Below, piece by piece: positions 10,213-30,456 of a DNA stretch of 64,000 bases. The stretch spans positions 11,393 to 75,392 of the forward strand of contig DASWOP010000250.1 in NCBI GenBank assembly GCA_036404255.1, written 5' to 3'. The notes under the pieces were generated by a model. It had not been told where the DNA came from and made no database searches. It saw only the letters and a program-made list of their open reading frames with translations. Source of the stretch: Acidobacteriaceae bacterium (lineage in GTDB: Bacteria > Acidobacteriota > Terriglobia > Terriglobales > Acidobacteriaceae). Position numbers and translations under genes: made by a program. Position 1 is the first letter of the stretch, and each line of letters starts with the position of its first letter.

Positions 10213-10239
10213 GATATACAATTGACTGCAGGAGAGAAA

Positions 10240-11286: not shown

Positions 11287-11489
11287 ATTCTCCGTGCTGA
11301 CTACCCCTTTGCTAAATGTGGAGATTAAAGGCAATATAATGGTCTAGATCGTAAGGTGCTTTTTGTATCGCTTTTGAATCTGTCATTTTGATTGTGTTTG
11401 TCCAGGTCAACTCGAAACGTATGATGCTTCAGAATACTTACAAGCACAGAGTTCTTTGCCACTGATTCAATCGGAGAATATAACCTCTC

Positions 11490-12311: not shown

Positions 12312-12336
12312 CTGCAATTCCTTGCCTATATCCATG

Positions 12337-13872
12337 TTATGCGTGAATGCTAACAAGCGCTGCACTTCCTGGCGGCATGGTAATTTTGAATTCGCTGGCG
12401 GTGGTGCGGCGTAGAATTTCCGCCCTATCTGTAGCTAGCTGGCCATCACTCCCTACGGTTGCGTTTCCAAAGCGAATGCCGGTGGTCGCTTCCAGCGCTG
12501 GGCCAGTCAGGCGTTGAACAGATGCCGTGTGGAACAACTTTCCAGTACTGAGCAACATATCCGTCGCCTGCGAACCCTTATTAAAGATAGCGATCTGCAT
12601 AGTTTTGCCTGTTGCAGTAAGCGCGGCATAGGCCGTAATAGTAGATTGCGCTTCTGAGAAAGAGCTTTCGACTAAATTTGCTCCAGCCATGCGTGCTACC
12701 AGCAGCATGCCATAGAAAATGGGTCGTGCCGAGTATCCATGACTAGCGCTGCCCGCAATAGGCGTGTAGTAGGAATCATCCGCTTCGCTTTTTGCAACGG
12801 CATCTCCAGGCATCTTGCCGCCAAGCGAGGCTCTAATCTGCCGCGCGCTACCCCCATGGAAATTGATGCCGCAAAATCCAGCCGACAACAACTTGAGCGT
12901 AAGGTCTCCGGCCCACAGAGCCGATCCCAGGGTGTTGCTTACTCCGGGTTTACCGCCGGAGTAGCAGGAATTTACTTCCGTCATGCGAAAGGGCAAACCG
13001 GCATGGTGGCCTGCTGTCGCAGTCACGTTGATCTCATGATCGATCTTCTTCGGGTTTAGTAATAAGTTTTGCATCGTCGACTCAGGGCTGGTCGGGGGGC
13101 CTTCGGCATAGAAGTGATCCGTGATTGCGACGAGATGTTGTTTCATCTCTGCAACAGCTTCGCTCGCGAAGAGATTCATCCAGGCAGCCTCTGCACCCAT
13201 ATCGGGACCAGCGAGTCTAGCCGTGGGTATACGCTTCACAATCGCACGTGCGAAACTAAGCCACTCAGCCAGATAGACCTTTTCATTCCAGGCATCTGAA
13301 CGAAGCCGGTAGCGGATGTAATTATTCGGCTCGTTGCCAATCTGAAGATACTCGAGCTTAGATCCCAATATTTCTACAACGGCCGCCGCTTCTTCGGCAG
13401 CACGCTCCGGCGTGCCCGTGCCCAGGTTCAATCCATAGATGCAGTTCCAGCCGGTTACATTCAGAAAGTGACGAAGATTGTGCAACGCAGCCGGGGTAAT
13501 AGGGGTGAGTTCCTTCGGCTGAGTCGGTTGAGGAAACCACGCTGGTGCCTCCACCGTTGCATTGGCTTTGAAGTACGTGAACTCGCTGGTATTCCCCCCG
13601 AGCCGCAAGCTGCCGCTGGGGCTGAGTGTCCGAAGAAACTGCACCAGGGCTTTGTTCGACGGAGCAAAGTATTCCGGCTCACCAAGCTGTGTGGATTCGT
13701 AACTAAGTCCCATGACATCGCGTGGAATGAAGCCCCTGTGCTGCCCGGGATGAACCTGGAGCGTGAGCGGCTGACTCATGGCAGTACCCATGCCCCACAA
13801 AGGATGTGCGGCAGCCCCGAGCATGGCAAGACTGGTCGGAGCAGAAACAAGAAAGCGGCGTCTGTTCATCAT
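12337..13872 (-). CDS. Clan GH-A glycosidase, best guess GH79 beta-glucuronidase/heparanase-like
   Basis: Tat-like leader MMNRRRFLVS. LEYLQIGNEPNNY (acid/base NEP) and FRMTEVNSCY (nucleophile TE) at the spacing expected for a (beta/alpha)8 barrel, followed by a C-terminal beta domain. Confidence 0.55.
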   Translation of the reverse strand: MMNRRRFLVSAPTSLAMLGAAAHPLWGMGTAMSQPLTLQVHPGQHRGFIPRDVMGLSYESTQLGEPEYFAPSNKALVQFLRTLSPSGSLRLGGNTSEFTYFKANATVEAPAWFPQPTQPKELTPITPAALHNLRHFLNVTGWNCIYGLNLGTGTPERAAEEAAAVVEILGSKLEYLQIGNEPNNYIRYRLRSDAWNEKVYLAEWLSFARAIVKRIPTARLAGPDMGAEAAWMNLFASEAVAEMKQHLVAITDHFYAEGPPTSPESTMQNLLLNPKKIDHEINVTATAGHHAGLPFRMTEVNSCYSGGKPGVSNTLGSALWAGDLTLKLLSAGFCGINFHGGSARQIRASLGGKMPGDAVAKSEADDSYYTPIAGSASHGYSARPIFYGMLLVARMAGANLVESSFSEAQSTITAYAALTATGKTMQIAIFNKGSQATDMLLSTGKLFHTASVQRLTGPALEATTGIRFGNATVGSDGQLATDRAEILRRTTASEFKITMPPGSAALVSIHA

Positions 13873-13985
13873 GATGAGATTATGACTCCCTGCGTATTGA
13901 TAATGATATCGGTAGCTTCCCAGTGATAAATTCCTCTGTACCAGCCACTTCTGCTACCAGCTGGCACAGCGGCGACGGGTAAAAA

Positions 13986-15884
13986 TCAAGGACCTACATT
14001 GACGGCAATCGGCGTAACGACTGGTGTGGCAATACCTACAAAGATAGTGACGGAATTATCACCAGAGTTGGCAGTCCATATATTACCGCTTGGATCCACC
14101 GCAATCGCGACAGGGAGACTCAGCACGCCGTATCCCGTCGCAGGTGAAACCGCGGTGCTACCTGAAAATTCCGAGATGGACGCACTATTGGCAAACCATG
14201 CCATACTATTGCCGTCGTATGCCACAGCAAGAGGCAGTGTCAGTCCGCCGCCCAGTACGGGGCTAGCTGTATCCACGGCACCTGTATTTACAGCCAGTGT
14301 GAACGCACCGGAAATCGATGCACCGGTGGTGCTTCCAGTCATGACAATCGCTCCGCTACTGTTGATTGCCAGGCCTGTACTTCCAAAAAGGAAGCCATCG
14401 CTTATGCAGTTCTGAAAGACAGCGGCACTGCTGAAGAGGCAAAGCTGCCCTGTTCCGGAGTTGGCAATGACTATGCGTCCAGTGGAATCAAGGGCAATCG
14501 CGGTGGGCTCACTGAGTGCGCCGGACCCCGTGATGGGGCTTGAGCCGCTGGGTGTACCGGATGAACTCAACTCTGTAATAGAATTGCCGCTGAAGTTCGC
14601 TACCCATGCATTGCCGACAGAATCATTGACAATCGCAACTGGCGTAGAGATGCTACCGCCGGTGAAGCCTGAACCGGAAAGCGCAGCGCCTGCGCTGCTC
14701 AACTTGACTACGCTATTACCACCAGTATTTGCGATCCACAGGTTGCCGCTACGATCGATTGAAATCCCACGTGGCGAGAGCAATCCAGCATTGCTATAAG
14801 GCGTAGTTGTGAATGAAGATGAGAGACTAGGAAACTTCACAACCGAGAAGCCGCCTTCGTTAGTTACCCAGGCATTTCCACCGGCATCAATTGCTATGCC
14901 ACCAGGACTGGTCATCTCCGATCCGGTGTAACTCACAGAGAGCGTGAAATCACCCGGCTGTGCACTGAGACCCGGAGAAAATGGTGGCGTCCCTGTGACT
15001 AGCGAATATAGTCCCGTAATAGATGAGCTACCGGGATGATTTGCCATGGCGAGTCCAGCGTCGATCGTCTCCGTAGCGCCAGTGGCGGAGAGCAGCGACA
15101 TGCAGGACACGGAGGCAGCAGCACTTGTTCCATTCACACAGGAAGCCAGGATATTGGCCAGCGTATTCAGACGCGCGACTGGAAGCGTGATGCCAGCAGA
15201 TGGCGTCGCGATCAAGCCAGTCTGAAAATTGACGAGCGTGTTGACCATATTGAACGCATTGACCAGCCCCGTGGGATTGCTTCCAGTAGCACCGACATGC
15301 GTGTAATCACCCATGAACGGAGCAAGTGCATAAACCGCGGCCACAGTTGTAAGTTCATTCAGGTTGATAAAGGTGCCCGATGTGAGCGAACTGCATGGGC
15401 CCAGCGCTGCCAACAGACCTAGCGCGGTATTGTTGCCTCCACCAGCGTTACCACCAGTCGCCGTGATGTAAACCTGTGTAGCCGATGAACAGGAGTAGTC
15501 TCCCGTGATGGTGAATTCGCCAATCGGTAATGTATTGAATGCGTTGCCAGCATTGCCACCGGTACCGGAACCATCGCTGGTAGTCACGGCGCTTGTGAGC
15601 AATGCCCTCGAAGCCGATCTCGCGCCTGCAGTACCCACAGTGTAAAGCTGAATTGTTGCACCGCTCACCGGTTGCTGTCCGCCTTTAACGCGCCCCTGCG
15701 CAATGATCGTGCTCTTCCCGCCGCTGCCACCGCCATTGTCGGCAAGCGATCGCGCGGTACCCGCACCGCAGCCGCCAAGTAGTGCGGATGCCAGCATTGC
15801 CACGCCGCCTAGCATAAGCGCTCTGGCTGAGTGAGACTGAGACTTCGCAAATGACGATATATCGTTCATAGTGTTTTCTCGCAT
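13986..15884 (-). CDS. Surface lipoprotein with CarboxypepD_reg-like domain and 6 NHL-like blades (paralog 2 of 3)
   Basis: Lipobox ALLGGCG. GRVKGGQQPVSGATIQLY. NELTTVAAVYALAPFM. Repeated GNAWVTNEGG / GNLWIANTGGNSVVKL / GNAWVANFSGNSITEL / GNIWTANSGDNSVTIF. Confidence 0.75.
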   Translation of the reverse strand: MRENTMNDISSFAKSQSHSARALMLGGVAMLASALLGGCGAGTARSLADNGGGSGGKSTIIAQGRVKGGQQPVSGATIQLYTVGTAGARSASRALLTSAVTTSDGSGTGGNAGNAFNTLPIGEFTITGDYSCSSATQVYITATGGNAGGGNNTALGLLAALGPCSSLTSGTFINLNELTTVAAVYALAPFMGDYTHVGATGSNPTGLVNAFNMVNTLVNFQTGLIATPSAGITLPVARLNTLANILASCVNGTSAAASVSCMSLLSATGATETIDAGLAMANHPGSSSITGLYSLVTGTPPFSPGLSAQPGDFTLSVSYTGSEMTSPGGIAIDAGGNAWVTNEGGFSVVKFPSLSSSFTTTPYSNAGLLSPRGISIDRSGNLWIANTGGNSVVKLSSAGAALSGSGFTGGSISTPVAIVNDSVGNAWVANFSGNSITELSSSGTPSGSSPITGSGALSEPTAIALDSTGRIVIANSGTGQLCLFSSAAVFQNCISDGFLFGSTGLAINSSGAIVMTGSTTGASISGAFTLAVNTGAVDTASPVLGGGLTLPLAVAYDGNSMAWFANSASISEFSGSTAVSPATGYGVLSLPVAIAVDPSGNIWTANSGDNSVTIFVGIATPVVTPIAVNVGP

Positions 15885-15899
15885 GAAACGCTCTTCAAG

Positions 15900-18800
15900 C
15901 TAGTTCAGCGTTTGCATGAACGTTTGCGTGGCCTCCCACCAGCCGGTGCTGTCATCCCATGCATAGCTCGACGATGACCAGATCACGACGCCGTCAGCAA
16001 GTGAGTATGCCGTCTGCAGTTGAAATGCCCAATATGCAGCGCTCACATACTGCCCGGCCTTGGCTGTGCCTGGGTGATACTGCGGTGAAATGTAGATATA
16101 TACCGGCTTGCCCGGCGCGATTGCACGCGCCGCAGCTACTTCCTGCGCTGCCAGCGAGGCCCATGCTGCCTGATCGTCATTGTAGGTATACATCGACGGA
16201 AACATTGCGGTTACTTGCGTCCCAAGTGCCGTGGCATATTGCATGTTCTGCGTCGAAACATTGTCGAAGGTGTTGTAGCCATAGTAGCCCACAAGTTTAC
16301 CGGGATGGTCTGCCTTAGCCCACGTAGCCAGCGTCGCCAGTATCTGCTCGTTTGCTGTCGAGGTCAGTCCAAGCAGCTCGACATCCAGAACCAGCGGACC
16401 AGGATTGGTGTACTTCGCCATCAACGTGTCAAAGGAACTACGCGTGGGTAGCGTCTGTTCATCAGCTTGGGTTGTTCCGCTGGAGTCCACCCAGATCTTG
16501 CTTTCATAGACGACGTTGGAAGTAATCAAACCGTAGGTGCTGGTAGTTGGCTTGCCCGAATAAAACATATTGTCGTAGACAACGAAGGATGTTGGCTGTG
16601 CTGTAAAGCTGCGTGTCACTGGAGTGGCAGCAGCAAAGTTCGTATTACCAGCCTGCGATGCGGTGACGGAGACCGCGCCGGTTCCTGTCACATAAAGCGT
16701 ACTTCCGCTCACAGTGGCCGGCCCGCTGGCAACAGCATATGTTGCCGGCAGGCCGCTGGTGGTATATGCAGCAAGCTGCACGCTGGTATCGTTGCTAGGA
16801 TAGTTTGCCAGTGCAGGAAAAATGATGCTCTGTGCCGCGCTTCCGGTCACACTCAGGGTCGCGCCGGTCGTCAGCGCAAAGCCATAGTTATTGGCACTGG
16901 AACTTACCAGTGTTCCCTGCGATACAGTAATGGGATAGCTGCCCACAGGCGACTTAGGCACCGCAGTTGTCGAGATCAGCGGCGACCCAGTAACGCTGTT
17001 CGCCTGTGTATCGGGAGAGATAAAGCCAGTGATTGTATAGCCGAACGTTGGGTTCGCAGTTCCGTAAATACGTGAAAGGAGGCCGCTCGGAGTAACGGTG
17101 AGCGTAGCAGTATTTACTACAATGCTTTGCTGAACAGGTGTTGCTGCAGCGTAGATGGCATTGCCCGCTTGAGAAGCTGTAATCACGACGGTGCCGGTAC
17201 CTGTAAACGTGAGCATGTTGCCGCTCAGTGTGGCTGGGCCCGTGGCATTGTAGGTAACGGGCAGGCCGGAGCTTGCCGTTGCGCCCAAGCCGATCGACGG
17301 AGCGCCGTAAGCCACCGGCGATGTAGGCGCAGGAAACGTAATCGTCTGCGCCATAGTTCCTTGGCTATATGGCTTCAGGATTCGAACCACATTGTTGCCG
17401 CTATCTCCGAAGTAAACATTACCGCTGGTATCTACTGCGATATGTCCTGTTGGTGTGGAGAGAACTGCGTTTGTAGCAACGCAACCATCGCCATAACCAT
17501 CGGTCGAACAGGCAGCTTCTGTCGTACTCGATCCACCGCCGGCAACTATCGCAGCGTTTTGCGTGCTTGCAGTCACCTCCCATATCTGGTTGGCAACTGC
17601 ATCTGCAATGTAGAGATTGTTGGACGCATCGAATCCGATACCAGTAGCACTGCTCAGCTTAATGGATGTTGCGGCAGCGGCAGTTGTGCCGCTGCCGCCG
17701 CCTGCATAGGTATAGATGTCTTTGCAGGTCGCCAACGTACCTGTGGTAGCAGTGCTGGCCATACCAGTGCAACTGGTTTGCGCCGTCGCATAGTATCCAG
17801 CGGGCGGCTGCGAGCCCAGATAAACCACGCGTACGCGTCCTGTAATAGCGCCATAATCTGCGATGTAGAGGTTGCCGTACGAATCGAATGCAAGATCATA
17901 TGGCTTGCTAAGATTGGCAGAACGTGCGGGTCCGCCATCACCGCTTTCTACTGAAGTGCAGCTAGTGTAAGTACCCTTTGAGACCGTCGCCTCCGCGCAA
18001 CCTGCTCCGGCTCCGCCTACCACTCCGGTCACATAACCAAGTGCACTTGCATTTCCAAGAGCATCGGTCGATGCTCCGGCGATGTTGATCTCGCGGACTA
18101 CATTGTTGCCGCTGTCTGCTACATAGAGATTGCCGTTAGCATCTACGGCCATCCCCTTTGGTCCGTTGAACTGCGAAAGCAGCACATATCCGCCATCACC
18201 AAAATACCCCGTACCGGGAGTATTTGAATTGATAAGAACATAGGAATAACCACTCTTCGCTGCTGTAGTACCAGCCGGTCCCGCAGAGCTTCCACCCGCA
18301 GCAAGGAAACTTGCCTGCTGTGTTCCAGCCACATATGTCATGCGAACGTAATTACTGCCTTCCTCAAAGATATTGCCGGATGCATCCACTGCAACGGCGG
18401 CAGAAGCAAATATCGTAGTGTAGCCAACTGCGCCGATCTGCGTGCTGGCAGTATATTGTCCACCGCCGATCACGTTGTACACGATATTAGGGGGTACCGG
18501 CGATGCCAGAATCGAACTGCTTGCATAACTAGCAACCAACGCCGTTCCCAGCGCAGCATTGGTTCCGTTGTAGAGCACGCGCAGCTCGCCTGTATATCCA
18601 GGACCTGGTGTGGAGCCGGTGTAGCTGTTCGCCGAAGTAGGTGTGGTATAGGTCGCACTATCACCAGTATCCGTGTTGGAGGTGTAATTTCCTCCGTCCG
18701 AGATATAAAGCTGGCCGAATGAATCGATCTGTGTCGCATTGGGCTTCGACACAAGTATCTGGCTCACGGAGCAGCCATCGCCGATATTTGATCCCAACAG

Positions 18801-19082
18801 TTTTGTAGAGGAATTGCCGTTCAGCGGAATGGAACTGGCACAGACATGAGTTACCGTGGGCGAAGTATTTGGCGTGATGCCCGGCTGACCGGCGTATGCC
18901 CCAATCGAAATCTGCGCATGCACGCCGGTAACTCCAGCCACCAATAATCCACATATTGCCATGCCTGCAATAACTAAGGATGCGCCCCTTCTACGCTTGT
19001 ATCCAGTGTTTGGCATAACCATTCTGAACCTTCCTTGCAATTCCAGCACTCCGCGGTGCTGCTCTTGAAAACATCGATTCAT
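15900..19082 (-). CDS. Secreted multidomain protein with NHL repeats, Ig-like and MBG domains, and a C-terminal GH56-like (hyaluronidase-like) domain
   Basis: Signal peptide. GNLYVADSGNNVVREI-type NHL repeats. MBG-type YGTANPTFGYTITGF...VGSYPI...NNYGF. The last 233 aa are homologous to the 29103-29975 product. Start is uncertain (19082, 19022 or 19016). Confidence 0.8.
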   Translation of the reverse strand: MNRCFQEQHRGVLELQGRFRMVMPNTGYKRRRGASLVIAGMAICGLLVAGVTGVHAQISIGAYAGQPGITPNTSPTVTHVCASSIPLNGNSSTKLLGSNIGDGCSVSQILVSKPNATQIDSFGQLYISDGGNYTSNTDTGDSATYTTPTSANSYTGSTPGPGYTGELRVLYNGTNAALGTALVASYASSSILASPVPPNIVYNVIGGGQYTASTQIGAVGYTTIFASAAVAVDASGNIFEEGSNYVRMTYVAGTQQASFLAAGGSSAGPAGTTAAKSGYSYVLINSNTPGTGYFGDGGYVLLSQFNGPKGMAVDANGNLYVADSGNNVVREINIAGASTDALGNASALGYVTGVVGGAGAGCAEATVSKGTYTSCTSVESGDGGPARSANLSKPYDLAFDSYGNLYIADYGAITGRVRVVYLGSQPPAGYYATAQTSCTGMASTATTGTLATCKDIYTYAGGGSGTTAAAATSIKLSSATGIGFDASNNLYIADAVANQIWEVTASTQNAAIVAGGGSSTTEAACSTDGYGDGCVATNAVLSTPTGHIAVDTSGNVYFGDSGNNVVRILKPYSQGTMAQTITFPAPTSPVAYGAPSIGLGATASSGLPVTYNATGPATLSGNMLTFTGTGTVVITASQAGNAIYAAATPVQQSIVVNTATLTVTPSGLLSRIYGTANPTFGYTITGFISPDTQANSVTGSPLISTTAVPKSPVGSYPITVSQGTLVSSSANNYGFALTTGATLSVTGSAAQSIIFPALANYPSNDTSVQLAAYTTSGLPATYAVASGPATVSGSTLYVTGTGAVSVTASQAGNTNFAAATPVTRSFTAQPTSFVVYDNMFYSGKPTTSTYGLITSNVVYESKIWVDSSGTTQADEQTLPTRSSFDTLMAKYTNPGPLVLDVELLGLTSTANEQILATLATWAKADHPGKLVGYYGYNTFDNVSTQNMQYATALGTQVTAMFPSMYTYNDDQAAWASLAAQEVAAARAIAPGKPVYIYISPQYHPGTAKAGQYVSAAYWAFQLQTAYSLADGVVIWSSSSYAWDDSTGWWEATQTFMQTLN

Positions 19083-19087
19083 GCTGA

Positions 19088-22000
19088 TTAGTTCGACGCT
19101 GCTACGACCAGCGTGATCGGAATCGATTCAACTGAGCCATTAGAGCTCGTGGCAGTCAGCGTAAACACCGTGGTTCCGGGCGGCGTAGTAACATTCGGCA
19201 GATCGTAGTAATTTGTCCCACTGCCGCAACCGGAGAGTCCGAGTCCGCCTAGTATCGGCAATACGCACAAGACAACCGCGAGTAGTGACTTGCGCATCGC
19301 AGCATTCCGTCGCTTGCGCCATGCCAGCAGAACCAGTCCACCCAAGAAAGTCAATCCGGCCTCAGTGACTTCAGAAACACGCCCACACTTAGCAGGAGTC
19401 TGCTGTTTCGCCAGGTTTGGCGTCACATTGGTAAACACCTCCAGCGTGAGCAAGCCAACAGGATCAGTTGCACTGTTACCACTGAATGTAAGGTTGGTGC
19501 CGGAAGGGACTGGACACGCCGAACCAGCTGCCGGAACTGATGGACAAGTCAGGAACCGGCAGAGAGAGTTCTGCGGAAGATTGGAACAGGTGAATGTCAC
19601 CGTACCGCTCAGTCCCATGTATGGCGTGACATAAACGCTGGTACTAGTCTCTGCGCCTTGCAACGTACTGAGCGTGGTAGCCAGGGCAGTCATTCCGAAG
19701 TCGCCCTTCACCGTAACTGAACTGGATGTAGATGAGAAAAAATTTGCGCCACCCAGATAGTTAGCACTAAAAGATGGATAGGTATTTGCGTTGATCGCCG
19801 TAGCAGCCAATGCCGTCGTGGCACCCGATATGGTGAGCGTAGCAACACCAGACGCATTGAGCGATGCGATACCCAGTGTGGTGGACCCAGCGCTGAATGA
19901 GACTACTCCAATGACTCCAGCTGCAGGTGATTTAACGGTTGCCGTCAACACATAAGCCGGTATTGCACTGCCCTGCACGCTGAGCGGCGCACCGGAGTAA
20001 GCGAGAGTCGTCGTGCTTGACTCAGGAATCACAGTGAGCGTCAGGCTGGCATGACTGGATACATAATTGGAATCGCCGCTATATTGCCCGGCAATACTGA
20101 ACGTACCCGCCTGCGGGCTAAAGGTATAGGTCGCGGTGCCGTTAGCAACCGTAAGCACTGTCTGCTGAATACCATTCACCTGCACTAGTATCTTCCCCGT
20201 CGCTGCCGTAGTGCCTGACTGTGTCAAAGTGAACGTAAGCGTGATGGGTGAGCCATAGCTGATTGACGAAGATGCGCTTGGCGATGAGCTAATAGTGAGA
20301 TTACTGTTGAGCAGGTTTACTCCGCTACCTGTCAGCGTTGAACTTACAGAGGAAGCATTCCCCGCGTTGGATGGGAAGGTAATCTTGTCCGAAAAACTGC
20401 CAAGTGCTACCGGAGAAAATACCGCAGAGATGCTGCATCCCGCACCAGCAATCAGAGCACTACCGGAGCATCCATTTGATGTCGATGCGCTAACCTGGAA
20501 ATCTCCAGTGTCTCCGCTGACGCTGTACGGTGCGCCGCCGGTAAATTGTAGCGCCGCATTACCAATATTGGTGAGAATGAAGGATGAGAAAGCTGAACTC
20601 TGCCCTACATTGAGAGGATAAAAGCTGGTGGATATCTGCTGACGGTTCAGGTACGTAACCCCAGCGCTAGTGTCTGTCACATAAACATTGCCTAGACTGT
20701 CAACCCAAAGTCCAGTCGGTGCAGTCAACCCAGACAGTAGGGTGACCGTGGTGACGCCCTGTGCGGAAATGAAGCCTACTTGCGATCCTGCCTTATCCAG
20801 CACATAGAAATTGTTGGCGGCGTCTATCCCTATGGCCGCAGGATTGAACAAACCGAGTGCAACCGGAGTGACCGCACCTGTCGATAACGTGACCTCAACC
20901 ACCCGGCTATTGCCTGAATCCACCACATACAGATTGCCGCTGCCATCCAGCGAAAGCTGCGTTGGACTGGAGACGCTCGTGGTCAGTACGGTGGATGCTC
21001 CCTGGCGGATCTGCATAATGCGGTTGTTGCCAGTGTCAGCAACATAGATATTGCCACCGCCATCCACCAACACTCCCTTTGGAGCAGCATAGCCGGTCAG
21101 ATATGAGACGGTTGCGCTGGTGTTGTTATAGATGGCCACACGGTTGTTCCCCGTATCCGCTACCAGCACATTGCCCTGGCCATCCACAGAAACCTGCGAC
21201 GGCGATGAAAGGCCGGTAATAAGTGATGTAGCTGTCAATGCGGTTGGGCTGGAATAGCGCAACACACTTCCGCTGGTCTTATCAGCAACATACACTTCGC
21301 CGGACGGATCGGATGTGACGCCGAGTGGCGCGGTTCCAGAGCCTACGGTAACGGGCGTCGCGTTATCCAGGGCAATCTCTGCCCCGCTTGCCGTGCCGCT
21401 CACGTAATTGGTGCCAATGGTATTGCCAGTAGAAGAGGATACTCTCACGCCACCAAGTCGCAGGCCAGGCAACGTCGGTTTGAATGTCACATTGAGGTAG
21501 CAGATCTGTCCCGCAGCTAGTGCCTGCCCGGATGTGTCACACGTGCTGCCGCCTGCATCAAGGAAATCGGAACTGGAGGCACCCTGCACGGCGAAGGTTG
21601 CACCACCCACTGTAACCGCACTGAGGGAAGCAAAAGCGAGCGCAGTGGACGAGGTGGAACCCAGAGCGGTAGATGGTGCCGCAGGCACGGACTTGGAAAG
21701 CTTGTGCACAACATTGGCGGACGAATCGGCAACATACAGATTTCCCTGCGCATCGAAAGAGATTCTACCGGTCGGGAAACCCAGAGTAGCCAGTGTAGCC
21801 AGGCAGCCATCGCCATTAGCATAAGTCCTAATGGGACCAGAAGCGAACGTGCTGGAGCACGCGGTTCCAGCCGCAGTCGATGTGCCACCACCGGCAATAA
21901 TCGTTGCCACCTGTGTGGCCGCGTCTACTTCCCAGATCTTGGCGCCAGTGCCATCAGCAATATAGAGATTGCCGGCTGCATCAAAGCCCAGGCCAGTAGC

Positions 22001-23200
22001 TGACTTCAGCAAAATCTGTGTCGCTGGACCACCCGTCGTCAAGGTGCCGCCACCGGCAACAGTATAGATATATCCCAACTGCGGGCTGCTAACGCCTGGA
22101 ATCGTACCGGTGCCGTTATAGATCACGCGAACACGTCCATTCCCAGAATCGGCAATATACAGATTGCCCGATGCATCAAACAGGACATCGTAGGGATTGT
22201 TCACTTCTGCAGACGTAGCAGGCCCCCCATCACCGATAGAACCGGCAGTGCAACCACCGGCTGAGCTAATCGCCGATGGCACCTGCACAGTAGCGCCAGT
22301 AATGGTGGCATAGGCGGAGACGACAGCCTGGGTACACACTGAGCCTGCAATCGTACTGATAATGCCTGTCGTGCCATTGATCATGCGGATAGCATTGCTC
22401 TTCGAGTCAGCGATATAAACATTCTCCGCCGAATCTACATACACTCCTTTTCCATTATTCGTTAGCGCCGCAATGGCCTTGCCGCCGTCACCGTAGTATG
22501 CGTTCAGACTGGCATAGATCATCGGATATACATTGCTCTGCTTAGGGCTGACAGTCCCAATCCCCGAAGTTGTTGCCTGTAGTAGTGCTGCCCCCTTGGT
22601 TCCTCCCACATACGCCATGCGCATGCGTGAATTACCTTCGGTCTCGATGATGTTGCCGTCGCCATCAATTGCCATGCCCGTTGGTGTGAGTGTTGTATTG
22701 CCGCAGCTTCCGCCGGCGGCAGAGATACTTGTATAGCCGTTCGAGTAGGGCCCGCATGCGTTATAAATATCACCGACAAGCAGTGATGAGGTCGTAATTA
22801 CGGATAGCTTGTTGTACGCGCTTACGATCGTCTGCAGTTCCGCTGCGCCACTCTGATAGATCACGCGAATCTGCTTGTCGCCCTGGTCGGCGATGAAGAT
22901 ATTATTCGTAGCCGGATCGATCAGCACCGACTGCGGCGCTTTCAGAATCGCCTGTGTCGGCAGACAGTTGTCCCCAGTAGAACCAACTGTTGTCGCGATC
23001 ACGGTGCTGCAGACCGTCTGCGTAGAACCGGTGGGAATGCCAACAGCCGTACTGATGTACGGAATCTGGATAGAGCCGGGGGTCTGGGCAAACGCGCCTA
23101 GACTCGCTGGTGCAAGAACCGCACACCAGAGCGCAGATCGCCACACAACTCCGCTGAACTTACCGCTATTGCCGTTTCGAGTGCCGCTACGTGGACTCAT
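19088..23200 (-). CDS. 1370-aa secreted NHL-repeat protein with choice-of-anchor-D/HYDIN-like and Ig-like domains and an unusual C-terminal TM hairpin
   Basis: Signal peptide ...ASLGAFAQ. Many GNLYIADSGNGRVRVIY / GNVLVADTGNNRVAIY / GNIYVADTGNNRIMQI repeats. C...C...V.F.P motifs (GQICYLNVTFKP, GAGCSISAVFSP). Confidence 0.85.
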   Translation of the reverse strand: MSPRSGTRNGNSGKFSGVVWRSALWCAVLAPASLGAFAQTPGSIQIPYISTAVGIPTGSTQTVCSTVIATTVGSTGDNCLPTQAILKAPQSVLIDPATNNIFIADQGDKQIRVIYQSGAAELQTIVSAYNKLSVITTSSLLVGDIYNACGPYSNGYTSISAAGGSCGNTTLTPTGMAIDGDGNIIETEGNSRMRMAYVGGTKGAALLQATTSGIGTVSPKQSNVYPMIYASLNAYYGDGGKAIAALTNNGKGVYVDSAENVYIADSKSNAIRMINGTTGIISTIAGSVCTQAVVSAYATITGATVQVPSAISSAGGCTAGSIGDGGPATSAEVNNPYDVLFDASGNLYIADSGNGRVRVIYNGTGTIPGVSSPQLGYIYTVAGGGTLTTGGPATQILLKSATGLGFDAAGNLYIADGTGAKIWEVDAATQVATIIAGGGTSTAAGTACSSTFASGPIRTYANGDGCLATLATLGFPTGRISFDAQGNLYVADSSANVVHKLSKSVPAAPSTALGSTSSTALAFASLSAVTVGGATFAVQGASSSDFLDAGGSTCDTSGQALAAGQICYLNVTFKPTLPGLRLGGVRVSSSTGNTIGTNYVSGTASGAEIALDNATPVTVGSGTAPLGVTSDPSGEVYVADKTSGSVLRYSSPTALTATSLITGLSSPSQVSVDGQGNVLVADTGNNRVAIYNNTSATVSYLTGYAAPKGVLVDGGGNIYVADTGNNRIMQIRQGASTVLTTSVSSPTQLSLDGSGNLYVVDSGNSRVVEVTLSTGAVTPVALGLFNPAAIGIDAANNFYVLDKAGSQVGFISAQGVTTVTLLSGLTAPTGLWVDSLGNVYVTDTSAGVTYLNRQQISTSFYPLNVGQSSAFSSFILTNIGNAALQFTGGAPYSVSGDTGDFQVSASTSNGCSGSALIAGAGCSISAVFSPVALGSFSDKITFPSNAGNASSVSSTLTGSGVNLLNSNLTISSSPSASSSISYGSPITLTFTLTQSGTTAATGKILVQVNGIQQTVLTVANGTATYTFSPQAGTFSIAGQYSGDSNYVSSHASLTLTVIPESSTTTLAYSGAPLSVQGSAIPAYVLTATVKSPAAGVIGVVSFSAGSTTLGIASLNASGVATLTISGATTALAATAINANTYPSFSANYLGGANFFSSTSSSVTVKGDFGMTALATTLSTLQGAETSTSVYVTPYMGLSGTVTFTCSNLPQNSLCRFLTCPSVPAAGSACPVPSGTNLTFSGNSATDPVGLLTLEVFTNVTPNLAKQQTPAKCGRVSEVTEAGLTFLGGLVLLAWRKRRNAAMRKSLLAVVLCVLPILGGLGLSGCGSGTNYYDLPNVTTPPGTTVFTLTATSSNGSVESIPITLVVAASN

Positions 23201-23221
23201 GGTATCGTCCTTTCCGGATTC

Positions 23222-26200
23222 TTAATAAGAGAGCTTCAATGAGAGTTGGATGCGGCGAGCATTGGTGCCAACAGTATTACCGCCTGTCGTTGCCAGCACC
23301 TGGCCTTCATAGTCGACGCCAGAAGTAGGTGGCAGCGACGAGTTCGGGTTCGCGAGGTTAGGCGTATTGAAAGCATTGATAGCATCCGCACGGAAAGCCA
23401 GCCTCGTAGTATGCGTAATCGGCAACCGCAAGGTACGCCCAGCGGAGAGATTGAGCTGGATAAATGCAGGCCCACGCAGCCTATTACGGGATTGGTTACT
23501 GAAGACGCCTGCCGCGGTTCCATTCGGCGGAACAACCCAGGCTGCGGTGTTGAACCATTCACTAATCTTGTCAGCGCGATGCCGACCGCTGGACAACGTG
23601 CCTTTCCCATACCCAGGCAGCAACTGGGCACGCTGGCGGCTACCTACTTCAGCCGTAAATGCCGCATCAGTCGTTAAGGTAACCGAGAAAGGCTTGCCAC
23701 TCTGCGCCGTGTACATGCCACTCTGTGTCCAATTGCTCAGTAAAATGCGCAGCGGGCGAGGGCCGTGACTAAACTTGGTTGGCAAAAAGGCCCAGCCTAC
23801 AGCAGTGGTCAGCTTTACGTCATAATCCGAAGGCCCATGCTCGCTGCTCAAATTGTCTATCTGTGGAACACTGCTTGACGTCGACGTACCAGTACTAAAC
23901 TCATCCAGCGACTTTGCGTATGCAAAGGTCGCGGTTAGAGAAACAATCTTTGCCCCACGCTCCTGGTAGAGCACCTGCACACCGTTATAGCTGGAGCTGC
24001 CAATGCTCTGGTATTCCACCACGCCCTGTCCGCCATAGTTAAAGCCAGGATAGCGGACCCGCGCGGCATACGATGCGGCCGTATTCGCACCTGTTGCCGG
24101 ACAATAGAGCGATGGATTGATCTGGTAGTACGCTCCAGTGCAATCGTAGATAGCTGGGTTCTTATCCAACGGTAGTGACTGATGACGTCCGAAACGTCCG
24201 ACGTAGTTCACCTCAAGCGAACCATGGCGCATGATGCTCTGCTGGAAGCCGAAGTTAACGGCTTCTGTATAGCCATCGCGATAGTTTCTATCCGGAAAGA
24301 AGATGGAAAATGGAAGATTGAACTGAGGATTGGTCCCGTCGTAGTTCTTGGGAATAGCCGGCAAACCCAGCAGCGGCTGGGATACGCCGCCTGAAGGATA
24401 GGCGTAATTTGCAATGTAGTGGAAGGGTTCTCCAACGCCAATTGTGAGCGCATTGGTCGCATCGTAGAAGATGCCAAATCCGCCGCGCACCGACGTTCTG
24501 CCATTACCGAAGAGATCATACGCAAAGCCGAAGCGAGGCGCAAAATCCTTATACTCGTTTTTGATTAAGGAGCGCGGAACTCCAGGGTCCCCAACGAATG
24601 CGAGATCCGGCACGGCGTTGGGGAAGATGACGGACTGATAGCCGGGGATGAAAGTAGTGTTCTGGTTCTTTGGCTGGTAGTAACGGAATGGAAGCTCGTA
24701 TCGCAGGCCAATGTTCAATGTCAGGCGAGGTAGAATGCGCCAATCGTCCTGTGCATAAAAATAGAAGTCATGTTGAATGCCGGAGCGGTTAAGTGAATTG
24801 GCGAAGTTTTCATTACTGGGCAGACCGAGGATCTCATCGCCCTGCGATACCAGGGAATATGTTCCGCTGAACGAGAACACGGGCGCGCTCTCTGAAACAT
24901 TCGCATACTGCAGCCGGAGAAAATCGACGCCAAATTGCGCGTTGTGCTTACCTCGTGACCAGGTCAAAGTATCCACAGCTTCTACATCTTCATTCACCGT
25001 GGAAGAGACCGCCTGGTTGGCCGTACCCATACCAGGAAAAACCGGCAGTACAGCTATGGAGTTATAGCTGGGAAAAGCCGCACCGAAATCCGACAATGTT
25101 GTGTGATCGATGGGTGAGTACTGGTAATCATAGCGCTTGTAGGCAAGACGGAATACGTTGAGCAGGTTGGGGCGAATGACCCAGGTATCACCAATGTCTC
25201 CGAAGTACGTTCCACCGTAATCCGCATCCGGTTCATAGCCGGCAACCGACGCATTCGTAGCCGAGACTGCGTTGTGCGCCAGTATATCGTTCGCTGAGGT
25301 CTGGTAGTAGCGCGCATCCAGCGTGTGGCCGTAGCCAAGATTGTAATCCAGGCGCAAGAGACCATTCTGGTCATTCTGTGGCAAGGAATAGGCCGTCGGC
25401 GTTTTGGTGGTAGGCGTGCCGTTGATGGAGGTCGCAATTGCGAGTGGCAGGTACTTCTGCATAGCTGCGAATACTACGGGATTGATACATATCGACGGAA
25501 GTTCATTGCCGACAATCGTCACCGCTGGCGAAGCCTTGCTCAGTGCAGTCTGCAGCAGTTGAACGCAGGGCGAATTCTGACCAGTGGCAAGCGTGTTCCC
25601 TGCCTGCACATACGCCGCATTCAAACCGGCAATGGCTACGGTTGAGGTGCTTGCCGTGGTTGCATTGGAGATGGGGTTATGTAGGTAGGTTTGTGGATTG
25701 CCGCTGGTATCGCGATAGGTTGGACCGGCGAGATCTGATAAATTGATGCAGTTTCCCGTACCCGCAAAATAGCCGGTGGAGGAACACGGAGTCGGGTTGC
25801 CGTTTGCGTCATAACCACGATCTGCCGCAGTAAAGCCGCCGCTGGTGACATTATTGTTCGCCGTCTGTGCGATGCGGAGACCTTGATACGAGCTGAAAAG
25901 GAAGAGCTTATCGCGGACGATGGGGCCACCGACAGTAATGCCGTACTGGTTCTGAATGAGCTTGGAGGGATGTTTGAGGAAGTAGTCCTGCGCGTTCAGA
26001 GCAGTGTTCTGCAAGTATTCATACAGTACGCCGTGAAACTGGTTGGTCCCGGACTTTGTAATCGCATTGAAAACGCTGCCCACGTTACGGCCATATTGGG
26101 CCTTGAAGTTATTGAGCAGTACACTGACTTCCTGTAGAGCATCTGGCGGAGGAAAATTCAGGCCGCTATTGGTATAGAGATTGTTCCACATCGTACCGTC

Positions 26201-26854
26201 AAGCAAAAATAGATTCTGAGTATTCCGGGCGCCAGAGACGTTGTATGCAGGACCAGAAGTGCCATCGCTGCTTGAAGAATCTCCCGTGAATGTTGTTGGC
26301 GCACTGACACCCGATACACCCGGCAGAAGCGCAGCCAGCGATATAACACTATTGCCATCGATCGGCATATTGTGGATAAGATTTTCGTCAATCAGCACAC
26401 CCACCGTTGCCGATTGCGTATCCACCGTATTGCCACTCGCCTCCACGGTCACCGTGGCTTCATCTGACTTCGGCTTGAGCACGGTATCAAAGCGGATATT
26501 CTTGTCAGAGTCCACAATAATGCCAGTCGCCTTGACTGTCGCAAAGCCCGGGGCCGTGATGGTGAGGGTGTATGTCCCCACTGCAACGGAAGAAAACAGG
26601 TACTCGCCGCTGCCATTGCTGTTCTTGGTAAGCGTCTGGCCGCGTTCTACCGATGTCAACATCACCGATGCAAACGGAACTACACTGCCGGTACTGTCCG
26701 TAATATTGCCCAGCACCTGCCCGGTATTCGCAAGCTGCGCCTGGACTGCGGCAGTGAGCAGCAGCGGAAGAACCGCACAAAGCACGATCAGCGCACGCTG
26801 AATACGGCGACGGTGCCGGGGAGCAATCACCGTCCATTCGGAGTTGGTCATCAT
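23222..26854 (-). CDS. TonB-dependent receptor, acidobacterial CarboxypepD_reg-plug-barrel type
   Basis: 1210 aa. N-terminal GNITDSTGSVVPFASVMLTS...GTYTLTITAPGFATV. Long beta-barrel. Terminal ...RRIQLSLKLSY. Confidence 0.9.
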   Translation of the reverse strand: MMTNSEWTVIAPRHRRRIQRALIVLCAVLPLLLTAAVQAQLANTGQVLGNITDSTGSVVPFASVMLTSVERGQTLTKNSNGSGEYLFSSVAVGTYTLTITAPGFATVKATGIIVDSDKNIRFDTVLKPKSDEATVTVEASGNTVDTQSATVGVLIDENLIHNMPIDGNSVISLAALLPGVSGVSAPTTFTGDSSSSDGTSGPAYNVSGARNTQNLFLLDGTMWNNLYTNSGLNFPPPDALQEVSVLLNNFKAQYGRNVGSVFNAITKSGTNQFHGVLYEYLQNTALNAQDYFLKHPSKLIQNQYGITVGGPIVRDKLFLFSSYQGLRIAQTANNNVTSGGFTAADRGYDANGNPTPCSSTGYFAGTGNCINLSDLAGPTYRDTSGNPQTYLHNPISNATTASTSTVAIAGLNAAYVQAGNTLATGQNSPCVQLLQTALSKASPAVTIVGNELPSICINPVVFAAMQKYLPLAIATSINGTPTTKTPTAYSLPQNDQNGLLRLDYNLGYGHTLDARYYQTSANDILAHNAVSATNASVAGYEPDADYGGTYFGDIGDTWVIRPNLLNVFRLAYKRYDYQYSPIDHTTLSDFGAAFPSYNSIAVLPVFPGMGTANQAVSSTVNEDVEAVDTLTWSRGKHNAQFGVDFLRLQYANVSESAPVFSFSGTYSLVSQGDEILGLPSNENFANSLNRSGIQHDFYFYAQDDWRILPRLTLNIGLRYELPFRYYQPKNQNTTFIPGYQSVIFPNAVPDLAFVGDPGVPRSLIKNEYKDFAPRFGFAYDLFGNGRTSVRGGFGIFYDATNALTIGVGEPFHYIANYAYPSGGVSQPLLGLPAIPKNYDGTNPQFNLPFSIFFPDRNYRDGYTEAVNFGFQQSIMRHGSLEVNYVGRFGRHQSLPLDKNPAIYDCTGAYYQINPSLYCPATGANTAASYAARVRYPGFNYGGQGVVEYQSIGSSSYNGVQVLYQERGAKIVSLTATFAYAKSLDEFSTGTSTSSSVPQIDNLSSEHGPSDYDVKLTTAVGWAFLPTKFSHGPRPLRILLSNWTQSGMYTAQSGKPFSVTLTTDAAFTAEVGSRQRAQLLPGYGKGTLSSGRHRADKISEWFNTAAWVVPPNGTAAGVFSNQSRNRLRGPAFIQLNLSAGRTLRLPITHTTRLAFRADAINAFNTPNLANPNSSLPPTSGVDYEGQVLATTGGNTVGTNARRIQLSLKLSY

Positions 26855-26937
26855 ATCTTCTCTTCCTCGCTCATTGCAAAACTTCGTATGCCTTGTTGCC
26901 TATGCTCAACTGCTTGCTCATAACCTTCTGTAGGATC

Positions 26938-28611
26938 TTAGAAAAACGTCTCGATCTCTTCCAGCGTCTTACCCTTTGTCTCTGGCAGATAGAAAAGTGC
27001 AGTCAGAAAATACACAATGGTGCACGTACCCCAGAACCAGAACATCGCGTAGTACCCAAAGCGGCCCACAACCGGTAGAAACAGCCCAGCAATCAGCGTG
27101 GAAACACCCTGATTGATCAGCAGCGCAACACCCATTCCGTTGGAGCGGATTCGCGTCGGCATCAGCTCCGATAGTGCGAGCCATACCACCACACCGGGCC
27201 CCACTGCGAATGCCGCGATGAATAGCGCAATGCATCCAGCAATCAACCAGCCCGTCGCTTCACTAGGAATCGGACCGTAGTAGGCATGCTCAATCGTCAG
27301 CGCATATGATTTCCCGCTATCGGGCTGAATGCTCAATACCGCGTTCCTGTCAGTACTGACGGCGGTGGCAACCTTATCTCCCGTTCCGTAGCTATATAAG
27401 ACAGTGAGCGCCATTGGCGGGCCGCCCGCAGCCTGCGTACGCAGACTCTGAATTGGCAGCTCCAGCGTGTTCGCACGGACTTGACTCTGCAACTGATTCC
27501 GTACGTCCGCACGGTTCGATTCAAATGCGTGGAATAAGAACCCGGTTGTGCTCAACGCGATGATGATGCCGGCAGTCCCCAACGTCAGCAGGAACTTCCT
27601 GCCCTTCTTATCCACCAGTGCAACCGCCACGATCGTCATAGCGCAGTTCAGCAGCTTCACCGCGAGATCGCCCTGCGTTGCATGCTGTGCGCTCATCCCA
27701 GCCTGCTTCAGAATGATGACCAGATAGCCGAGGATCGAATTGATTCCTGTTGCCTGATTGCAGGCCAGGATGACACATGCAAGCAGAAACGGGATCACAT
27801 ACTTTCGCTGCAGTAGTGAACCGCCGGTCCCGGAAGCCACCTTCTGCCGATTGGTATTCGCATGCTCTTCCATCTCGCGAAACTGTAGCACCGCCTCTTC
27901 CTCTGAAGAAGACCTCTGCAACGCGAGCAATGCATCCTTGGTTCGTCCATGGCGGAAGAGCCAGCGCGGCGTCTCACCAAGAAAGAAACAGCCAATGAAA
28001 AATATGAGCCCCGGATAAACCACGGAGAGAAACATGCTGCGCCATGCATGATTTGCAGCAGCCATGATCAGTCCGGCATTCCCTGCCGCTGCGTCAATAG
28101 CTTTCTCAGCCTGGCCAGTGTAGAACCATCCCACAAATGCTGCGATTGCAATGCCTACGGTCAACATGAACTGGAAGATGGCAGATCCTCTTCCACGGCT
28201 AGTGGCGGGGAGGCACTCGGCAAGATACAGCGGCACCACCACGGCAATGAATCCACCGCTCAACCCCTGTAGCAGCCTGCCTGCTAAAAGCGGAACGAAC
28301 CCCTGTGAAAGCACTATCACGCCAACACTGGCTACAAACAGCAGACCGCTGATGATCATCATGGTCTTGCGTCCCAGCCAATCCGCCAAAAAGCCCGCAA
28401 CCAGCGAGGAGAACATGCTACCTCCCAAAACTGCGGCAACAATGATAGATGTCTGGCCTTGAGTTAGGTTGATGGTCTTTCCCAGATAGAGCAGCGCTGC
28501 TGCAATGATGCCTACGTCAATGCCATAGAGCAGCCCGCCCATCCCCGCAATAAACAGCAGGAAGCGATCGTAAACAACACCCGTGAGTCTGTCGCCAGTT
28601 CTTGCACTCAT
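26938..28611 (-). CDS. MFS sugar-porter-family transporter with ~89-aa periplasmic insertion
   Basis: GRK / GRLLQG motifs, PETPRW and PETKGKTLEEIE sugar-porter signatures. 12 predicted TM segments. Extra segment between TM9 and TM10. Confidence 0.9.
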   Translation of the reverse strand: MSARTGDRLTGVVYDRFLLFIAGMGGLLYGIDVGIIAAALLYLGKTINLTQGQTSIIVAAVLGGSMFSSLVAGFLADWLGRKTMMIISGLLFVASVGVIVLSQGFVPLLAGRLLQGLSGGFIAVVVPLYLAECLPATSRGRGSAIFQFMLTVGIAIAAFVGWFYTGQAEKAIDAAAGNAGLIMAAANHAWRSMFLSVVYPGLIFFIGCFFLGETPRWLFRHGRTKDALLALQRSSSEEEAVLQFREMEEHANTNRQKVASGTGGSLLQRKYVIPFLLACVILACNQATGINSILGYLVIILKQAGMSAQHATQGDLAVKLLNCAMTIVAVALVDKKGRKFLLTLGTAGIIIALSTTGFLFHAFESNRADVRNQLQSQVRANTLELPIQSLRTQAAGGPPMALTVLYSYGTGDKVATAVSTDRNAVLSIQPDSGKSYALTIEHAYYGPIPSEATGWLIAGCIALFIAAFAVGPGVVVWLALSELMPTRIRSNGMGVALLINQGVSTLIAGLFLPVVGRFGYYAMFWFWGTCTIVYFLTALFYLPETKGKTLEEIETFF

Positions 28612-29975: not shown

Positions 29976-29999
29976 ACAGCCATACCGTGCTCAGGCAAT

Positions 30000-30420: not shown

Positions 30421-30456
30421 TCACACTGCTATCTGTAGCAAATGCTGCACCGCAGC

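Follow-up and report, generated by a model that had tools for sequence, protein, structure and literature searches.

How is a polysaccharide taken up through a TonB-dependent receptor where no SusD is encoded beside it? TonB-dependent polysaccharide import without SusD is an open question outside Bacteroidota, and since Acidobacteriota rank with the most abundant bacteria of soil and peat, their glycan uptake bears on terrestrial carbon turnover. The question is raised by a cluster of six genes in a 64,000-nucleotide (nt) stretch of an Acidobacteriaceae bacterium (contig DASWOP010000250.1, positions 11,393 to 75,392), called the window below, in which the gene for such a receptor is followed by genes for three proteins rich in NHL repeats. 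An initial annotation of the window had proposed these NHL proteins as the glycan-capture partners of the receptor. We found that the first of them, a 1370-amino-acid (aa) protein with NHL propellers, immunoglobulin (Ig)-like domains and a C-terminal lipo-invert tail, is the conserved partner of the receptor, with which it forms a clade-specific and strictly kept pair, and that the other two belong to a separate cassette that is usually found without a receptor.

Gene cluster and its conservation

The six minus-strand open reading frames (ORFs) and the domains discussed below are as follows.

26938 to 28611, minus strand: major facilitator superfamily (MFS) sugar porter, 557 aa (Pfam Sugar_tr, E 3e-77; TIGR00879, 255.5 bits against a cutoff of 237.8)
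23222 to 26854, minus strand: Oar-subclass TonB-dependent receptor, 1210 aa (PF13620, PF07715, PF25183)
19088 to 23200, minus strand: 1370-aa NHL/Ig protein (NHL, TEN_NHL, Big_3_5, HYDIN Ig, choice_anch_D)
19091 to 19417, minus strand: lipo-invert anchoring domain of the 1370-aa protein (NCBIfam NF058595.1, invert_tail)
15900 to 19082, minus strand: 1060-aa NHL and MBG_2 protein (Pfam TEN_NHL, NHL, MBG_2)
16593 to 17375, minus strand: MBG_2-containing module, residues 570-830 of the 1060-aa protein (alignment to giant proteins encoded beside lipoprotein homologues)
13986 to 15884, minus strand: 632-aa NHL lipoprotein (Pfam NHL; signal peptide with lipobox)
12337 to 13872, minus strand: GH79 (glycoside hydrolase family 79) beta-glucuronidase, 511 aa (E 7e-91 to AcGlcA79A; PDB 3vny, 5g0m)

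The intergenic gaps are, in this order, 83, 21, 5, 15 and 113 nt, and the tight packing of the six genes described by the initial annotation (5-113 nt) was recovered at exactly its coordinates. The sugar porter, TonB-dependent receptor and glycosidase that it named are now a TIGR00879 MFS protein, an Oar-type receptor and a GH79 enzyme. Its figure of 3062 aa of NHL-rich proteins behind the receptor (1370 + 1060 + 632), one of them a lipoprotein (LLGG-C39), is also right; the three proteins score 124.4, 44.6 and 66.1 bits with PF01436 NHL against a cutoff of 20. The missing SusD/RagB gene was confirmed as well, with no match to this Pfam family in the 44 larger ORFs of the window that were scanned. 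Identical proteins (P0001, P0121 and P0241) are recorded from an NCBI metagenome-assembled genome with the label Acidobacteriaceae bacterium. The first gene of the cluster, the MFS porter, is a predicted inner-membrane importer. None of the five intergenic gaps holds a terminator-like hairpin, in a scan whose counts were overall at or below chance.

Relatives whose proteins are 69-87% identical repeat the entire arrangement, and the six genes are therefore a real, conserved cluster and a predicted operon. In the loci of lipoprotein homologues at 73-76% identity (L079-L084) the order is receptor, 1370-type, 1060-type, lipoprotein, GH79, DeoR, Amidohydro_2 and GatZ, continuing with GH88, lyase, sulfatase and SIS. 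The locus of the receptor homologue at 69% identity (L090) has the MFS gene, the receptor, all three NHL genes and a flank of GH20, BadF, SIS and DeoR genes; the MFS orthologue (900 bits) is kept directly upstream of the receptor. Synteny at 69-87% identity could simply mirror relatedness, and more distant loci were therefore examined from the receptor end and from the lipoprotein end.

The receptor and its 1370-aa partner

The receptor has a Sec signal (..AVQA/QL), a CarboxypepD_reg extension at residues 47-126 (PF13620, E 2.4e-15), a Plug domain at 169-257 and a large barrel at 265-1203 (PF25183, 940 residues, E 1e-157). Its layout of PF13620/PF13715, Plug and barrel is similar to that of SusC/RagA transporters. 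No SusC/RagA model of NCBIfam matches it, the only result being a sub-threshold FCYXU-type match, and the sequence search against the PDB returned no match. A PF13620 N-terminal extension together with Plug and barrel makes up the Oar subclass of TonB-dependent receptors (PMC6434023), and the receptor has precisely this set of domains. The window encodes a second Oar-type receptor (52647-56369, plus strand), just 25-28% identical to the first, followed by genes for an AraC regulator, an EamA transporter and a GH88 enzyme and lacking an NHL partner. Divergent from it are an 802-aa protein without a Pfam family and a GDSL esterase (stretch 48912-60015).

The 1370-aa protein consists of a Sec signal (residues 1-38, AFA/Q), NHL propellers of the teneurin and PknD types (about 45-850; Pfam NHL, E 5.5e-37), Ig-like domains (about 855-1260) and the lipo-invert tail (1262-1370). 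Paired Cys residues conserved in an alignment of 36 family members are consistent with export of the protein.

Hidden Markov models (HMMs) of the receptor and of the 1370-aa family were built from homologues and run against every ORF in 175 loci and the window, with thresholds of at least 1200 and at least 1150 bits, respectively. Every ORF that reaches the threshold for the 1370-aa family lies directly 3' of a same-strand receptor that reaches its own, which holds for 12 ORFs at 11 distinct loci (the window, L079/L080, L082, L090-L095, L124 and L175). The family members at these loci are 35-87% identical to the window protein, and the pairing persists down to 35% identity of the partner and 47% of the receptor, with gaps of 17-67 nt between the called genes. 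The receptor homologues at 69, 62, 58, 52 and 50% identity each have a gene for a 1312-1450-aa NHL and Big_3_5 protein 17-41 nt downstream, and just the 69% locus among these five also has the 1060-aa and lipoprotein genes. Across L090-L094 the bit scores of receptor and partner to the window proteins drop in parallel. For 16 of 60 full-length homologues of the 1370-aa protein the longest contig is identical in size to that of one of the top 120 receptor homologues, which gives a lower bound. The culturable relative Granulicella rosea encodes the receptor homologue P0133 and the homologue P0253, both recorded with a longest contig of 86,426 bp.

The neighbourhoods of the pair vary from GH20/SIS/BadF to GH3/heparinase II-III/GH78, GH29/GH2, GH79/GH20, sulfatase/DeoR/lyase and, at L175, GDSL esterases, an NHL/Calx-beta/PL7 (polysaccharide lyase family 7) protein and SASA; in this last locus the member at 35% identity starts 67 nt after the receptor. 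GH79-like genes are found with the pair in four of the five other loci and directly follow it in two of them. It may be, therefore, that receptor, 1370-type gene and GH79 originally stood in this order and that the 1060-aa and lipoprotein cassette was inserted in this lineage.

Large NHL proteins in general do not behave in this way. Those scoring below 1000 bits with the family HMM are seldom receptor-adjacent, and tail-less giants have a receptor within 3 kb in 4 of 81 cases. A metagenome scan with the family alignment yielded 80 loci, mostly of distant NHL proteins, and provided the background set; its only close relatives are at L095, L102 and L124, the back-translated patterns being generic NHL-repeat motifs. 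The proposal that NHL proteins are receptor partners thus stood for the 1370-aa protein (11 of 11 loci) and failed for the lipoprotein (6 of 78) and for NHL giants at large (4 of 81).

Two loci deserve separate mention. L175 encodes, three genes 3' of the receptor-partner pair, a 1036-aa NHL, Calx-beta and Alginate_lyase2 (PL7) protein (17843-20953), a natural NHL-lyase fusion within a glycan locus, and its 810-aa and GDSL genes 3' of the pair resemble the 802-aa and GDSL pair of the window. In L009 (9518-20728), from the Granulicella metagenome-assembled genome (MAG) OZ255850.1, a receptor of the window clade is convergent with a lipoprotein gene and divergent from the gene for a 1546-aa tail-bearing NHL protein, so that adjacency is kept and the operon structure is broken.

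The lipo-invert tail

Residues 1252-1366 of the 1370-aa protein match NF058595.1 (E 1.7e-10, 41.2 bits against a cutoff of 37), to which NCBIfam gives the name 'lipo-invert putative C-terminal anchoring domain'. After the last Ig-like segment come a variable linker, a hydrophobic helix, the basic cluster RKRRAMRK, a second hydrophobic segment with an internal lipobox (LSG-C1325, Cys codon at nt 19226-19228) and a tail of about 45 aa. G1324 and C1325 are at least 90% conserved across the 36 sequences, one homologue being truncated before the Cys. C1325 is followed by Gly in the window protein, and Asp does not occupy this position in any aligned homologue. An AlphaFold model of the tail has helices at residues 1275-1295 and 1300-1322 followed by a confident beta hairpin, which, to judge by its high pLDDT (predicted local distance difference test) values, would complete the preceding Ig-like domain. 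When the 109-aa tail was searched as a single sequence against 1.84 billion representatives, 26 matches came back, several of which cover the last 45 aa only and are an internal repeat of large proteins, so that no census could be drawn from them.

Of 15 proteins that bear the tail and are not members of the 1370-aa family, 7 have a receptor no more than 3 kb away, against the 4 of 81 of tail-less NHL giants (Fisher p = 1.3e-4; p = 1.2e-3 for complete ORFs with enough flank). The tail could form an inner-membrane hairpin with the body of the protein in the periplasm; in the other topology, with putative lipidation and cleavage at the internal lipobox Cys, it would leave a processed, lipid-tethered protein. 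We found no paper on 'lipo-invert' or NF058595 and no description of NF058595 associated with TonB-dependent receptors.

The 1060-aa protein and the lipoprotein as a portable cassette

The 1060-aa ORF probably starts in truth at M21 or M23, either of which gives a Sec signal (..GVHA/QI), and its orthologues are called at 1016-1049 aa. Its MBG_2-containing module aligns to the C-terminal end or region of proteins of 900-2200 aa whose genes directly precede those of lipoprotein homologues. The additional 230 aa at the C-terminus of the 1060-aa protein match no NCBIfam or Pfam family.

The 632-aa protein has a lipobox signal (LLGG-C39, Cys codon at nt 15768-15770), a Gly/Ser tether, a beta-sandwich (62-175), a Cys-rich helical domain (177-295) and a 7-bladed propeller (316-615). 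The 27 aligned homologues, at 47-76% identity, all share G38, C39 and four more Cys. The AlphaFold model (pLDDT 79.6, predicted template modelling score 0.82) matches NHL propellers in Foldseek (E 1e-13), with the best TM-score (template modelling score) to the 7-bladed Vgb lyase fold; these matches are dominated by the propeller and gave no information on the N-terminal beta-sandwich and helical domains, and residues 39-320 match no NCBIfam or Pfam family. The NCBI model of the lipoprotein (P0001, 603 aa) starts at Met30 and loses most of the signal peptide (15797-15884), and the homologue alignment favours the longer N-terminus.

The scan centred on the lipoprotein, with one genome per species, covered 78 loci (1.51 Mb in total) with relatives at 33-61% identity, nearly all from Acidobacteriaceae (Granulicella, Terracidiphilus, Bryocella) and often several per genome. 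A receptor lies within 10 kb on either side in just six of these loci, mostly on the opposite strand, and a receptor of the window clade occurs at L009 alone, convergent with the lipoprotein gene. The co-occurrence of NHL lipoproteins with receptors, put forward by the initial annotation as the test of its proposal, thus came out negative. The lipoprotein gene directly follows a 900-2200-aa giant in 14 loci, stands in tandem arrays of 2-4 paralogues in 29 and is single copy in 35. Relatives at 61-66% identity occur in three unrelated contexts, directly after the gene for a protein of about 1950 aa with Flg_new_2, GH28, Big_3_5, Big_9 and MBG_2 domains, and no receptor is found among their annotated neighbours.

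In the window and the lipoprotein-derived loci the MBG_2 module occurs 26 times at full length, each time with a lipoprotein gene immediately behind it. Given this adjacency, set against a receptor in 6 of 78 loci, the constant partner of the lipoprotein is a giant with the MBG_2 module at or near its C-terminus and not the receptor, and the 1060-aa and 632-aa genes are a separate, portable two-gene cassette that usually occurs without a receptor. Since the 61-66% relatives follow GH28-bearing giants with the same C-terminal module, the head of the giant is interchangeable (NHL or GH28) and the module is constant. The giants of L002, L011 and L065 align to both the 1370-aa and the 1060-aa window proteins.

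Among the individual loci, the giants of L085-L089 (about 4100-9980) and L001 carry the pectin-lyase-fold GH28 domain and the MBG_2 module at the C-terminus. L032 (Granulicella mallensis, 7004-16496), L014, L035 and L048 have three to four tandem NHL lipoprotein paralogues of about 600 aa without a giant partner; a weak sub-threshold receptor-like match was seen in L032, and no receptor lies nearby in L014, L035 and L048. Several lipoprotein loci come from MAGs labelled as Proteobacteria (L008, L042 and L048, Gammaproteobacteria; L025, Rhodanobacteraceae; L050, Nevskia; L067, Acetobacteraceae) and could be mis-binned acidobacterial contigs or horizontal transfers.

Flanking genes and the likely substrate

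The operon lies within a larger island.

2749 to 11286: downstream flank (lower coordinates) with PfkB kinase, SIS, sulfatase (SGSH_C), lyase, GH88, GatZ/KbaZ and Amidohydro_2 genes (Pfam)
6556 to 7635, plus strand: lyase of the Alginate_lyase fold (Pfam)
11490 to 12311, plus strand: DeoR-family regulator (Pfam HTH_DeoR and DeoRC), convergent with the end of the GH79 gene
29103 to 35791: upstream flank with a 290-aa protein without known function, DeoR, SIS, BadF/BadG-type sugar kinase and GH20 beta-hexosaminidase genes (Pfam)

The downstream flank also holds an aldose epimerase gene; its order from Amidohydro_2 to SIS is the same in L079-L084, with PfkB lying beyond those loci, and the DeoR gene beside GH79 is conserved in L079 and L082. 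The gene set of the upstream flank also adjoins the operon in L090. The GatZ ORF (8841-10502, 553 aa) begins at a TTG that adds a spurious stretch of about 125 aa, which overlaps the neighbouring gene.

The GH79 protein itself gives just a weak GH79C match in Pfam and a clear GH79 assignment in the PDB sequence search. It is about 50% identical to AcGlcA79A of Acidobacterium capsulatum over the catalytic domain, retains the NEP acid/base and TE(V)NS nucleophile motifs and thus both catalytic Glu, and is a paralogue or orthologue from a different species; its substrate could be glucuronic acid (GlcA), 4-O-methyl-GlcA or a heparan-type sugar. Its Tat-type (twin-arginine) signal RRRFL makes a periplasmic location probable.

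Taken with the MFS porter and the two DeoR regulators, the GH79, GH88, GH20, lyase-fold and sulfatase genes make up an island for sugar breakdown and uptake. The beta-glucuronidase, unsaturated glucuronyl hydrolase, lyase, sulfatase, hexosaminidase and N-acetylgalactosamine (GalNAc)/tagatose genes suggest as substrate an acidic, glycosaminoglycan-like, probably sulfated polymer with glucuronate and N-acetylhexosamine. The stretches 1787-11286 and 29103-35791 resemble a GalNAc/tagatose route and a pathway for sulfated uronic-acid glycans, candidate glycans being chondroitin- or heparan-like polymers or microbial exopolysaccharides.

Interpretation of the operon

The explanation that we favour, at a probability of roughly 0.5, is a glycan-utilisation operon with a core of Oar-type receptor and NHL/Ig/lipo-invert partner, beside which the 1060/632 cassette is a separate unit. 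From the gene content, the pairings and the signal and anchor motifs of these loci we infer a physical interaction, glycan binding and cellular locations in the following way. The partner of about 1350 aa would be a Sec substrate that stays attached to a membrane through its tail, and its propellers could bind the glycan, or oligosaccharides from it, on either side of the receptor, which would serve for TonB-powered import. The oligosaccharide would then be trimmed in the periplasm by the Tat-exported GH79 and the neighbouring enzymes, and the resulting sugars would be taken up by the MFS porter. The lipoprotein probably tethers or partners the giant, and the 1060/632 cassette would here be an accessory binding or tethering complex.

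A bolder version, which we regard as tentative and put below even odds, is that an obligate pair of Oar-type transporter and lipo-invert-anchored NHL/Ig protein has arisen in Acidobacteriaceae convergently to SusC/SusD, with paralogous pairs tuned to different glycans and with Lgt and LspA acting on the internal lipobox, so that the protein would be tethered through its C-terminus or be membrane-bridging, a mode of anchoring that still awaits experimental characterisation.

Several points weigh against the favoured explanation. In none of the propellers did we identify a carbohydrate-binding module or a recognisable sugar-binding site, and an inner-membrane hairpin at the tail would place the partner in the periplasm and not at the surface. 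Conserved adjacency indicates functional coupling without telling its nature, and the 11 family loci are almost wholly from Acidobacteriaceae, which leaves a residual signal of shared ancestry. The comparison of 7 of 15 with 4 of 81 has small numbers and non-independent ORFs (two are from L146), and the substrate is assigned by gene content.

As to what the propellers do, we favour binding or scaffolding over catalysis because the nearest solved relatives are binding propellers, the enzyme-family scores are sub-threshold and an invariant His or Glu is missing. The closest relatives of the 632-aa and 1370-aa propellers in the PDB are the PknD sensor (E 4e-27 and 2e-28), TRIM-NHL proteins, teneurin and the Pizza designs. 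For Vgb_lyase the scores (39.2 and 34.5 bits) stay under the cutoff of 50, and SGL gives 25.0 and 28.9 against 26.3 with no significant stretch. The lipoprotein propeller superposes on Vgb lyase (TM 0.78) at 14-16% sequence identity, and none of its His or Glu is invariant in the 27 homologues. In the 1370-aa family the invariant residues are structural repeat positions (D-x-x-G-N-x-Y-x-x-D and N-x-R) and the paired Cys. The Joint Genome Institute (JGI) names 'streptogramin lyase' and 'sugar lactone lactonase YvrE' go back to sub-threshold propeller similarity. The lipoprotein was also considered as a Vgb-type lyase and rejected for its lack of catalytic residues.

Among the competing explanations, that of the initial annotation, in which all three NHL proteins and above all the lipoprotein are surface glycan-capture partners and general analogues of SusD/E/F, is unlikely. 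The three genes do lie between the receptor and GH79 and are kept there at 69-87% identity, and the lipoprotein has its invariant lipobox and Gly/Ser tether. Its +2 residue is Gly and not Asp, which predicts the outer membrane by the sorting rule of E. coli. The co-occurrence outcome already weakens this explanation, however: the lipoprotein has a receptor within 10 kb in 6 of 78 loci (one of the window clade only in L009), none among the annotated neighbours at 61-66% identity and none within 10 kb of the tandem arrays of distant paralogues, while receptor orthologues at 50-62% keep the 1370-type gene without the cassette and generic NHL giants are receptor-adjacent in just 4 of 81 cases. That NHL/Ig/MBG giants are abundant and mostly away from receptors, and that the 1060/632 cassette moves independently, would also suit the absence of any functional link, the products of the NHL/Ig genes being envelope proteins or adhesins with nothing but gene neighbourhood and promoter in common with the receptor. 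We consider this the least probable explanation, since the receptor and 1370-type pair outlasts the turnover of its neighbourhood at 11 loci and down to 35% identity, a persistence difficult to account for unless co-expression or interaction is under selection, and the Pfam-annotated family loci are CAZyme-rich (rich in carbohydrate-active enzymes).

Two further readings are export and catalysis. The receptor could export the partner as its cargo, as its Oar architecture of PF13620, Plug and barrel (PMC6434023) and its strict pairing, one to one, with a large exported protein for which no other way across the outer membrane is evident would allow. Yet the pair sits in catabolic CAZyme and transporter loci with the MFS sugar porter directly upstream, an import signature, and the cargo would be a 1370-aa multi-propeller protein with a membrane anchor of its own. 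In Myxococcus, as far as we know, oar and popC are not encoded side by side, and adjacency is thus no known trait of the Oar-PopC system. Bacteroidetes SusC-type importers share the Oar-type architecture. The same architecture is dominant in Bacteroidetes (PMC6434023), which likewise speaks against reading export from it, and altogether we regard export as quite unlikely. It is improbable, too, that the NHL proteins are enzymes, that is, lyases or lactonases of the Vgb or SMP-30 type which act on a uronic-acid polymer and feed GH88 and GH79. The weak Pfam matches, the source names and the superposition of the 7-bladed lipoprotein propeller, which is best on Vgb lyase, point that way, as do the GH28 domain of the lipoprotein-partner giants elsewhere and the NHL-PL7 fusion of L175; against them stand the scores below or near the cutoffs, the low identity to Vgb, the missing His/Glu, the structural nature of the invariant residues in the 1370-aa family, the binding function of the nearest solved homologues and the fact that the island already has a lyase-fold gene at 6556-7635.

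Comparison with known systems

The favoured operon resembles the SusC/SusD polysaccharide utilisation locus (PUL) of Bacteroidota in that a TonB transporter with a CarboxypepD_reg-type extension is followed by the gene for a conserved, lipid-anchorable partner, in that the pair lies amid CAZymes, a regulator and an inner-membrane sugar transporter, and in that paralogous pairs are apparently spread over different CAZyme contexts. It differs in having no SusD/RagB-fold protein: SusD is an N-terminally lipidated helical lid of about 550 aa, whereas the partner here is an NHL/Ig protein of about 1350 aa with an N-terminal Sec signal and a C-terminal lipo-invert anchor. The barrel is of the PF25183 family without an NCBIfam SusC/RagA match, and the phylum is Acidobacteriota.

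With Oar of Myxococcus xanthus the receptor shares the PF13620 extension, Plug and large barrel, a likeness of domain architecture and not of compared sequences; Oar is implicated in export of the protease PopC, whereas here the surroundings are catabolic and the adjacent gene encodes a membrane-anchored NHL/Ig protein. In the TbpA/TbpB, LbpA/LbpB and HpuA/HpuB systems of Proteobacteria a TonB receptor is genetically paired with a lipid-anchored ligand-capture protein. These systems obtain iron or haem from host proteins with N-terminally lipidated, Slam-exported beta-barrel/handle partners, and we know of no sequence or fold relationship of TbpB-type partners to NHL propellers. The NHL propeller of PknD from Mycobacterium tuberculosis, the closest solved sequence relative of the 632-aa and 1370-aa propellers, senses extracellularly for a Ser/Thr kinase, whereas no kinase accompanies the propellers here, which in a glycan-uptake locus are joined to either Ig stalks or a lipoprotein scaffold. 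Over its final 109 aa the 1370-aa protein scores above the cutoff of NF058595 and shares its helix, basic cluster, internal lipobox signal and short tail; the model gives the tail a name only.

The new element of the locus is the clade-specific pair of Oar-type receptor and lipo-invert-tailed NHL/Ig protein. Our search of the literature found no paper joining 'NHL repeat' with TonB-dependent, Acidobacteria or outer membrane, and nothing relevant on PUL and Acidobacteriota or on carboxypeptidase-regulatory domains. The analysis names one genetically testable candidate partner family, the 1370-aa NHL/Ig protein with its lipo-invert tail, separates it from look-alike NHL proteins without a receptor link, and connects an uncharacterised C-terminal anchoring signal with TonB-dependent receptors. 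If the favoured explanation is true, annotation pipelines could flag acidobacterial 'PULs' by the receptor-partner pair, as is done by SusC/SusD in Bacteroidota.

Other features of the window

The stretch 39830-44676 encodes a type III polyketide synthase, a methyltransferase, a DUF2306 membrane protein and an FAD (flavin adenine dinucleotide) oxidoreductase, a small putative secondary-metabolite cluster unrelated to the operon. At the end of the window (60061-64000, minus strand) are two adjacent large ORFs without a Pfam family, one of 684 aa and the other of at least 683 aa, which runs off the window.

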